Below are positions 32,212 through 32,420 of a stretch of 35,359 nt of DNA, in pieces (position 1 is the stretch's first letter; the number at the start of each line of letters is the position of its first letter). The notes under the pieces were generated by a model that was not told where the DNA came from, ran no database searches, and saw only the letters and a program-made list of their open reading frames with translations. Made by a program: the position numbers and the translations under genes. Source of the stretch: Escherichia coli (GTDB taxonomy: Bacteria; Pseudomonadota; Gammaproteobacteria; Enterobacterales; Enterobacteriaceae); assembly GCF_003334305.1 (NCBI RefSeq), contig NZ_QOWS01000034.1; one strand, 5' to 3'.

Positions 32212-32221
32212 GTTAAGCCAA

Positions 32222-32256
32222 CAGCATCCGGCTATCAGGCCGGATGCTGTTTTTGT
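32222..32256 (+). terminator. Rho-independent terminator/attenuator between hcp and vgrG
   Basis: Perfect inverted repeat CAGCATCCGGC-TATCAG-GCCGGATGCTG followed by TTTTTGT, 10 bp after the hcp stop. Confidence 0.65.
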
Positions 32257-32420
32257 ATTACGCCGTAGAAAGAAAGGTTGTCAGTAAGGGGTTACGTTCA
32301 CGGGAGATGGCGGCTGCCGGAAACTTCGGCGGTAGCGTGCCTGAACGCAAGCGTAACACTGTACTGTCACAGCCGCTTTAACAGCGAACTGTCTGTTTTT
32401 CCTTAACCCCGGAGGTTGCT

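Follow-up and report, generated by a model that had tools for sequence, protein, structure and literature searches.

A Rho-independent terminator and a conserved leader with an exact ops element separate hcp from vgrG in the T6SS-2 cluster of Escherichia coli

Introduction

In the type VI secretion cluster that the literature calls T6SS-2 (PMC13141884), the gene of the tube protein, hcp, is followed by a long spacer and then by vgrG, the spike gene. The T6SS-2 of EHEC and of many commensal E. coli could not be switched on in the laboratory, and a swapped promoter gives Hcp but neither VgrG nor Rhs, which leaves the role of the system obscure (PMC13141884). We asked which signals lie in the spacer and how they might separate the expression of tube and spike.

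The window, that is the whole stretch of 35,359 nt analysed here, is an E. coli chromosome segment adjoining tRNA-Asp (aspV) and carries the complete cluster. The genes from tssB to tssM and a second hcp occupy the minus strand at about 9.7–31.0 kb, while hcp, vgrG and the Rhs toxin gene lie on the plus strand. Over 31600–32700 the sequence is 100% identical to strain E2863 and to an O111:H8 strain, and 99.5–99.6% identical to O157:H7. The two genes bordering the spacer are

31693..32211, plus strand: hcp, tube protein of 172 aa, whose transcript is ended by the hairpin described below (ORF and RefSeq annotation)
32421..34562, plus strand: vgrG, spike protein of 713 aa, opening the vgrG-Rhs toxin operon (ORF and RefSeq annotation)

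From the hcp stop to the vgrG ATG there are 209 nt (32212–32420). The RefSeq label for hcp is ‘Hcp family type VI secretion system effector’ in records that are 99.5–100% identical over 31600–32700. Downstream of vgrG (2.1 kb) follow the gene of an RHS core protein (4.2 kb) and then ydcD. The second hcp, which differs from the first, closes the tssB–tssM operon (11125–11607, minus strand). The annotation of E2863, whose record comes closest over the hcp region, gives tssM and tssG as frameshifted (L088 12945–16378 and 25392–26473); in the window long ORFs cover both genes.

Results

The spacer corresponds to the h3R sequence of EHEC

The same spacer has been described as ‘h3R’ (hcp3 regulatory sequence) in EHEC O157:H7 EDL933 (Vazquez-Lopez et al., Microbiol Spectr, April 2026; PMC13141884). 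Identity to O157:H7 is 99.4–99.5%, and the three h3R primers of that paper have exact matches in the window, at 32213, 32244 and 32381. These boundaries place the published hairpin deletion at 32213–32243, region II at 32244–32380 and region III at 32381–32420.

In the wild type no RT-PCR product was obtained across hcp3-vgrG3, while vgrG3 amplicons were still detected; a junction product appeared once the hairpin region was deleted (PMC13141884). Read-through was seen by RT-PCR as a faint product from the plasmid and not at all from the chromosome (PMC13141884). Deletion of 32213–32243 left 6% of the hcp3 mRNA and about 50% of Hcp3 or of a GFP reporter placed upstream, and doubled a downstream mCherry reporter; the hairpin was thereby shown to separate the hcp3 and vgrG3 transcripts and to stabilize the hcp3 mRNA (PMC13141884). 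VgrG3 expressed from Ptrc (Trc promoter) became visible only after 32213–32380 had been deleted; removing the hairpin alone was insufficient. The approximately 137 nt after the hairpin (region II) block VgrG3 expression, and region III raised the VgrG3 yield in constructs (PMC13141884). Region II was read as a predicted promoter with sites for Fis, NarP, MalT and MelR, based on software only (BPROM, Sapphire, Virtual Footprint); RfaH, ops and conservation across genera are not mentioned in that paper (PMC13141884). Our analysis thus concerns the same locus with the same hairpin, the inhibitory region II and the vgrG-proximal region III, but differs in that region II is found to contain an exact and conserved ops element.

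The hairpin after hcp is a conserved Rho-independent terminator

An earlier note, made from the letters of the window, had described an 11-bp stem starting 10 bp after hcp (32222..32256), followed by an untranslated leader of about 165 nt. The hairpin itself is confirmed, but its dimensions had to be corrected:

32220..32251, plus strand: terminator stem-loop of 14 pairs with loop ATCA, ‘region I’ of h3R
32250..32259, plus strand: U-tract TTTTTGTATT, whose first two T belong to the last stem pairs; the T run is retained in relatives

The arms (AACAGCATCCGGCT-ATCA-GGCCGGATGCTGTT) form 13 Watson-Crick pairs, eight of the stem pairs being G-C, and one terminal U-G pair around a 4-nt loop; a T-rich tail (UUUUUGUAUU / TTTGTATT) follows the stem. 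The hcp stop codon ends at 32211 and the stem starts 9 nt later, in line with the published 32 bases at +8 with 14 interactions (PMC13141884). The leader length was well estimated, as 169 nt were counted from the stem to the vgrG start codon. A 51-nt stretch around the hairpin folds at -26.3 kcal/mol (z = -7.3), which none of 200 shuffled sequences equaled. Reading the minus strand, we found no T run after the same hairpin, so the terminator is one-directional.

We determined whether such a structure is usual after hcp in the best 80 loci that encode close Hcp relatives within a collection holding one genome per species. By a loose criterion (a hairpin of -8 kcal/mol or lower no more than 90 nt from the stop, with 4 or more T among the 8 nt behind it) a terminator-like site was present after 72 of the 83 gammaproteobacterial hcp copies in these loci, compared with 35 of 166 pieces of 90 nt taken at random from the same loci. 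The hairpin could be aligned in 25 loci, where 93% of the cells were paired and both-sided changes occurred at 8 of the 14 pairs (24 cells), values that were reached in none of 500 column shuffles. When the partner was slid by 1–3 columns, pairing fell to 35–59%. Divergent E. coli alleles contain two clean swaps, one from G-C to A-U and one from G-C to U-A.

On the hcp strand we thus find a GC-rich stem-loop and a U-rich tract, with compensatory changes in the relatives. Taken together with the prevalence of such sites after hcp genes and the junction RT-PCR published for EDL933, this canonical structure and its covariation support the terminator reading of the earlier note; the hairpin is real, functional and conserved by structure. 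The further proposal that termination is partial and sets the ratio of Hcp to VgrG is plausible. As in intra-operon terminators that set stoichiometry in general, a hairpin with a U-tract is placed between the gene of an abundant protein and genes of low-copy components, and the upstream mRNA is stabilized, as reported for the h3R hairpin. In contrast to this general class, the attenuator appears here to be coupled to a downstream loading site for an anti-terminator.

The leader contains an exact ops element

The ops element is the site at which paused RNA polymerase recruits the anti-terminator RfaH, and its 12-nt consensus has been quoted as GGCGGTAGnnTG (bioRxiv 10.1101/2025.02.08.637259). 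The leader carries an exact match:

32328..32339, plus strand: ops element GGCGGTAGCGTG, in the non-template strand for the hcp/vgrG direction

By chance about 1e-5 exact 12-mers would be expected on one strand of the 209-nt spacer. When one mismatch outside GGTAG was allowed, 21 further distinct loci among the relatives proved to carry ops, invariably in the coding strand and 115–133 nt after the hcp stop. In the alignment of 21 sequences G4 to C9 are invariant, and G1 to C3, G10 and T11 are conserved to at least 90%; variable columns are G1, G10 and G12, with G12 replaced by A in 4 loci. Mutational and structural mapping has shown G4, G5, A7 and G8 to be essential for recruitment and substitutions of C3 and T6 to reduce it; T11 is indispensable in vivo because of its role in pausing, G12 is required for the pause and not for recruitment, and G2 can be dispensed with (Zuber et al. 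2018). The conserved columns match the bases needed for RfaH recruitment and pausing.

RfaH-bound ops sites have been reported in 5’ leaders, while intragenic ops-like sites were unbound (PMC9765446). The element found here lies in an untranslated spacer ahead of a long operon, and the sole ORF overlapping it is not conserved. A second ops-like match in the window, GGCGGTAGGATG at 3614–3625 (plus strand), is located inside a methyltransferase CDS (3197–3967) and is probably due to chance, since intragenic sites of this kind are reported not to bind RfaH. In Trabulsiella guamensis (L030 3519–3862) the leader core described below is cut off before ops; another ops, exact and with a JUMPStart-like GTAGC upstream, is found separately at +332 from the hcp stop, ahead of a different gene.

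JUMPStart is a 39-bp element upstream of polysaccharide gene clusters and contains ops. Like the window leader it is part of an untranslated leader and carries GGCGGTAGCGTG, with which it ends, and both have an ops-like partial repeat about 20 nt upstream (TGGTAGCTG in JUMPStart, TGGCGGCTG in the window). Only the 12-nt ops aligns convincingly, however. By hand alignment the similarity does not extend over the 39 bp beyond ops and the faint repeat, and we rejected the identification of the leader as JUMPStart. The JUMPStart 39-mer occurs at 1–6 places (median 3) in every E. coli genome.

The ORF that overlaps ops has 45 codons (32244–32381, plus strand) and is annotated in some RefSeq records as hypothetical protein WP_001297813.1, probably EDL933_0238 of the h3R paper. 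Either this frame or its inner 24-aa part starting MAAAGNFGGSVPE could be what the leader encodes, and in many relatives the frame is indeed uninterrupted through the block of highest conservation. Its ATG, however, lies within the terminator stem, B2-type alleles stop after 6 codons, and indels of 4 and 8 nt shift the frame. The inner ATG is touched by GGGAG with zero spacing, reads AAG in L014 and belongs to a frame that is broken in L017. Substitutions occur at all codon positions and are mostly non-synonymous. These indels, the missing ATG and the pattern of substitutions led us to reject a small protein, which is hardly conceivable as the product of this leader. Given an ATG within the terminator stem and a frame not kept in relatives, the 45-aa annotation is almost certainly spurious.

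The ops element is embedded in a conserved core

The spacers of 23 loci were aligned. Within Escherichia they include B2-type alleles, which have other vgrG/effector modules, as well as E. albertii and E. whittamii; the remaining loci come from Citrobacter, Yokenella, Pseudocitrobacter, Atlantibacter, Buttiauxella, Lelliottia, Superficieibacter, Phytobacter and Trabulsiella. About 10 enterobacterial genera share a core of about 100 nt (about 32279–32375), which is always located just 3’ of the hairpin. It contains the following parts besides ops:

32279..32296, plus strand: 5’ arm TGTCAGTAAGGGGTTACG, an inverted copy of 32352–32369, conserved in 21 loci of about 10 genera
32302..32327, plus strand: near-invariant block GGGAGATGGCGGCTGCCGGAAACTTC directly 5’ of ops (alignment)
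32340..32348, plus strand: tail CCTGAACGC, abutting the 3’ end of ops; ops and tail form a 21-mer identical to one in the hcp-tssH spacer of CFT073 T6SS-1
32352..32369, plus strand: 3’ arm CGTAACACTGTACTGTCA, conserved, an inverted copy of 32279–32296

Identity to the window over the first 72 nt of the core is 69–89%, and 94% in E. albertii. The corresponding values from the same loci are 44–59% for the four-fold degenerate sites of hcp, mostly 0.5–0.75 for the 67 nt between the hcp stop and the core, and about 30% for the 45 nt proximal to vgrG. The core identity lies far above that of the four-fold sites in the same loci, which indicates purifying selection on the core. It could be argued that the core, without any function, merely hitch-hikes with hcp at the left edge of an exchangeable vgrG/effector module. 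Conservation does break off about 45 nt before vgrG, where differing vgrG types start, and the element trails hcp even where the next gene is not vgrG (L022, L025 and L034). But hitch-hiking would not account for a core more conserved than both the four-fold sites and the preceding 67 nt, nor for invariant bases that match the functional map of ops, and we regard it as very improbable.

The arms TGTCAGTAAGGGGTTACG and CGTAACACTGTACTGTCA flank the ops centre, are complementary at 14 of 18 positions and are conserved across genera, with no compensatory changes between them. They may form a stem in the RNA or serve as a pair of protein sites. The core matches one place per genome, none of them a JUMPStart site, and since it is present as a single copy an origin of the inverted arms from a repeat or MITE was rejected. 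The GGGAGATGGCGGCTGCCGGAAACTTC block comprises GGCGG.TGC, an ops-like half repeat, and GCCGGA-AAC-TTCGGC, a small hairpin with a 3’ arm that reaches three bases into ops (to 32330). Its variable positions lie in or beside the hairpin loop, and no both-sided compensatory changes were seen in 21 loci. CCTGAA in the CCTGAACGC region is nearly invariant in the alignment of 21 sequences.

Beyond the core lies

32381..32420, plus strand: proximal vgrG leader, region III of h3R (alignment with relatives and primer mapping)

which contains a weak hairpin, a T run (32396–32400) and the Shine-Dalgarno sequence GGAGG (32411–32415). Identity to relatives is about 0.3, and region III is not alignable across vgrG types.

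A search of a plasmid collection gave nine matches, namely eight E. coli records, most of which have the hallmarks of mis-assigned chromosomal sequence, and one orphan island of Salmonella. The latter, an orphan effector/immunity island of Salmonella Senftenberg NCTC10384 (L089 3752–4210, labelled plasmid 2), retains of hcp only the last 46 codons and of vgrG the first approximately 25, along with the terminator hairpin and the ops core; the control region has outlived the decay of both flanking genes. In E. coli MMC-J-0085 (L006) similarity to the window breaks off at base 136 of the leader query (164 nt), 3’ of ops, and an IS3-family element replaces vgrG. A MAG labelled Citrobacter (L008) shows the same breakpoint in a record that stops shortly beyond. 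Hcp, hairpin and ops are intact in both.

Promoter and RNA structure as alternative readings of the leader

The earlier note had proposed that the leader holds a promoter or a structured RNA element. A conserved regulatory element is indeed present, but its kind is different: the leader contains ops, and neither covariation, an Rfam match nor a consensus promoter was found in it.

A scan for the consensus gave no sigma-70-like site on the plus strand of the spacer, and scan and inspection of the alignment revealed no consensus promoter between hairpin and ops. Two further candidates were rejected by hand: a sigma-54 site on the minus strand (GGCACG..CGC), which has the wrong GG-GC spacing and is not conserved, and a sigma-E-like GGAAACTT..CTGAA, in which the spacer is too short and ACTT is not conserved. 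A separate promoter of vgrG would nevertheless agree with the detection of vgrG3 amplicons where no junction transcript is formed, and with the predictions of BPROM, Sapphire and Virtual Footprint (PMC13141884). In this reading hcp and vgrG would be fully separate operons, and the core would be promoter and operator DNA of the regulated region II promoter proposed in the h3R paper. The only hint is the TAnnnT hexamer TACGTT (32293–32298), which is kept in 17 of 21 relatives and as a weak -10 would give a start about 25 nt before ops, fitting the rule that RfaH-bound ops sites occur in 5’ leaders. It lacks a -35, however; no conserved one is found at the proper distance, and conserved bases run throughout the would-be promoter spacer, which is unusual. 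The promoter predicted in region II, on the other hand, overlaps the 3’ end of the small ORF and thus lies downstream of ops in the poorly conserved part. None of the 13 media supplements tried induced the reporter more than about two-fold (PMC13141884). We consider an own promoter of vgrG possible though rather unlikely; since RfaH-bound ops sites lie in 5’ leaders, it could coexist with the ops-based explanation.

Alternatively, the core could be a structured leader RNA that blocks vgrG translation or triggers decay, be it by an arm stem around the hairpin, a CsrA-type GGA platform or anti-Shine-Dalgarno pairing. The absence of VgrG3 protein despite risen mRNA (PMC13141884) would be explained in this way. 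The arms 32279–32296 and 32352–32369 are complementary, with 87% of the cells paired in 21 loci, but their covariation did not exceed that of shuffles by any measure. RNAalifold on 21 orthologous leaders yielded a covariation term of -0.44 and one compensatory pair, and the single-sequence fold of the leader is unremarkable compared with shuffles (z = -0.5). GGA motifs are present in GGGAGAUGG, in CCGGAAAC and in the Shine-Dalgarno sequence, but three per 165 nt is about the number estimated for chance, and the CsrA reading was set aside on this count. Several alleles (L003–L005, L010, L011, L013, L019 and L024) allow CCUGAA directly 3’ of ops to pair with a UUCAGG that overlaps the Shine-Dalgarno sequence of vgrG; in the window, which has CCCCGG at the latter place, this pairing is absent. 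An Rfam scan of 31000–33000 with E up to 10 returned nothing below E = 1, only chance-level matches, one of them between the terminator hairpin and part of sot2652, and no match for the leader. With neither a curated family nor significant covariation on the side of a structured cis-regulatory RNA, this reading seems quite improbable.

Terminator and ops also follow hcp in T6SS-1

Control of T6SS clusters by RfaH has been described at other loci. In UPEC CFT073 lacking H-NS and StpA, RfaH ChIP-seq peaks were found at c3392-tssH (T6SS-1) and c1882-c1889 (Hustmyer et al., mBio 2022, PMC9765446). In the EAEC Sci1 cluster a frameshift in rfaH or mutation of ops1 in the hcp-clpV spacer abolishes activity, and the EDL933 cluster is stated to ‘carry ops elements’, with neither position nor test given (bioRxiv 10.1101/2025.02.08.637259).

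We compared these loci with the window. The hcp-tssH spacer of CFT073 T6SS-1 (L091 39355–39545) has a 9-pair GC hairpin and UUUUUG right after the stop, and ops about 125 nt from the stop. It also contains the 21-mer GGCGGTAGCGTGCCTGAACGC, identical to window 32328–32348, while the remaining spacer sequence is unrelated; this suggests either an extended ops or a common origin. In EAEC Sci1 and CFT073 T6SS-1, ops is thus placed on the coding strand directly after hcp as in the window, and CFT073 T6SS-1 shares with the window the GC hairpin with U run before ops and CCTGAACGC after it. Hairpin with U run, ops and the identical 21-mer in the CFT073 spacer indicate that the order hcp, terminator, ops is a layout common to two E. 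coli T6SS families. The orphan PAAR-vgrG island of CFT073 carries GGCGGTAGCGTA, an ops with G12A, in its leader; judged from gene products and map position we take this island to be the RfaH-bound c1882 locus.

The EAEC and CFT073 clusters are H-NS-silenced and horizontally acquired, as is the cluster of the window. They differ in what follows ops: in T6SS-1 it precedes clpV/tssH and structural genes and in the CFT073 island an orphan PAAR-vgrG, whereas in the T6SS-2 of the window only the spike/Rhs toxin operon comes after it. The divergent tssB/hcp promoter region of the window (31100–31600) has 24–31% G+C compared with about 52% in the surrounding genes; such a high AT content fits the published H-NS silencing of the cluster.

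Discussion

The hcp-vgrG spacer is probably a two-part elongation control region, consisting of a terminator and, behind it, an ops/RfaH leader for the vgrG-Rhs operon. In the first part (32220–32259), the Rho-independent terminator would end most transcripts from the hcp promoter, and the hairpin would also shield the 3’ end of the hcp mRNA. With most hcp transcripts ended and their 3’ end protected, the tube protein could be made in large excess over the spike. In the second part, polymerases arriving in the conserved leader would pause at ops (32328–32339), where the exposed non-template strand may recruit RfaH. The polymerases crossing ops could stem from read-through of the hairpin or from a start between hairpin and ops. 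Once modified by RfaH they would complete the long (6.4-kb-plus), horizontally acquired vgrG-Rhs operon without premature Rho- or H-NS-linked termination, and RfaH may in addition help to load ribosomes onto the vgrG-Rhs transcript. The published block of VgrG3 by region II could then reflect an ops leader that is short of RfaH, for example when a strong promoter drives it on a multicopy plasmid.

By analogy, RfaH is a candidate for action at the ops of the T6SS-2 spacer, binding and dependence being known for T6SS-1 sites only. Some observations are less easily reconciled with this mechanism. A strong terminator upstream of ops implies that few polymerases from the hcp promoter reach it. The leader has a G>C skew and is not C-rich. 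Such a skew is untypical of a Rho loading site, so a role of RfaH in countering Rho within the leader is not evident from composition. Furthermore, when h3R was replaced by the Lac or AraBAD promoter, VgrG3 reportedly was still not detectable (data not shown in PMC13141884), which implies that further blocks exist.

The ops element comprises 12 nt, yet about 100 nt are conserved, suggesting that something more is encoded in the core. We tentatively raise the idea, speculative and on balance doubtful, that a dedicated gate into the spike/toxin operon is built from the arms, the GGGAGATGGCGG.TGCCGGAAAC block including the half repeat, and the tail CCTGAACGC. Such a gate, which would let polymerases or ribosomes pass or stop them, could be an RNA structure or a platform for a further regulator acting with RfaH. 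If it exists, it could explain why VgrG3 and Rhs expression failed in EHEC even from strong foreign promoters.

That the spacer contains a terminator and has a regulatory role is already known (2026), and so is the control of T6SS clusters by ops and RfaH (2022, 2025). Our analysis goes beyond these accounts with the covariation of the hairpin across genera, the conserved core with ops inside region II and the common terminator-then-ops design after hcp; the link between region II of h3R and ops/RfaH is a modest but new and testable point.

An exact and deeply conserved ops element within the very segment that blocks VgrG means that manipulating RfaH or ops could unlock expression of the spike/toxin operon. 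More generally, two different E. coli T6SS families share one design after hcp: a terminator that would secure a high yield of tube protein and, behind it, an ops site that would license the few polymerases going further through anti-termination.
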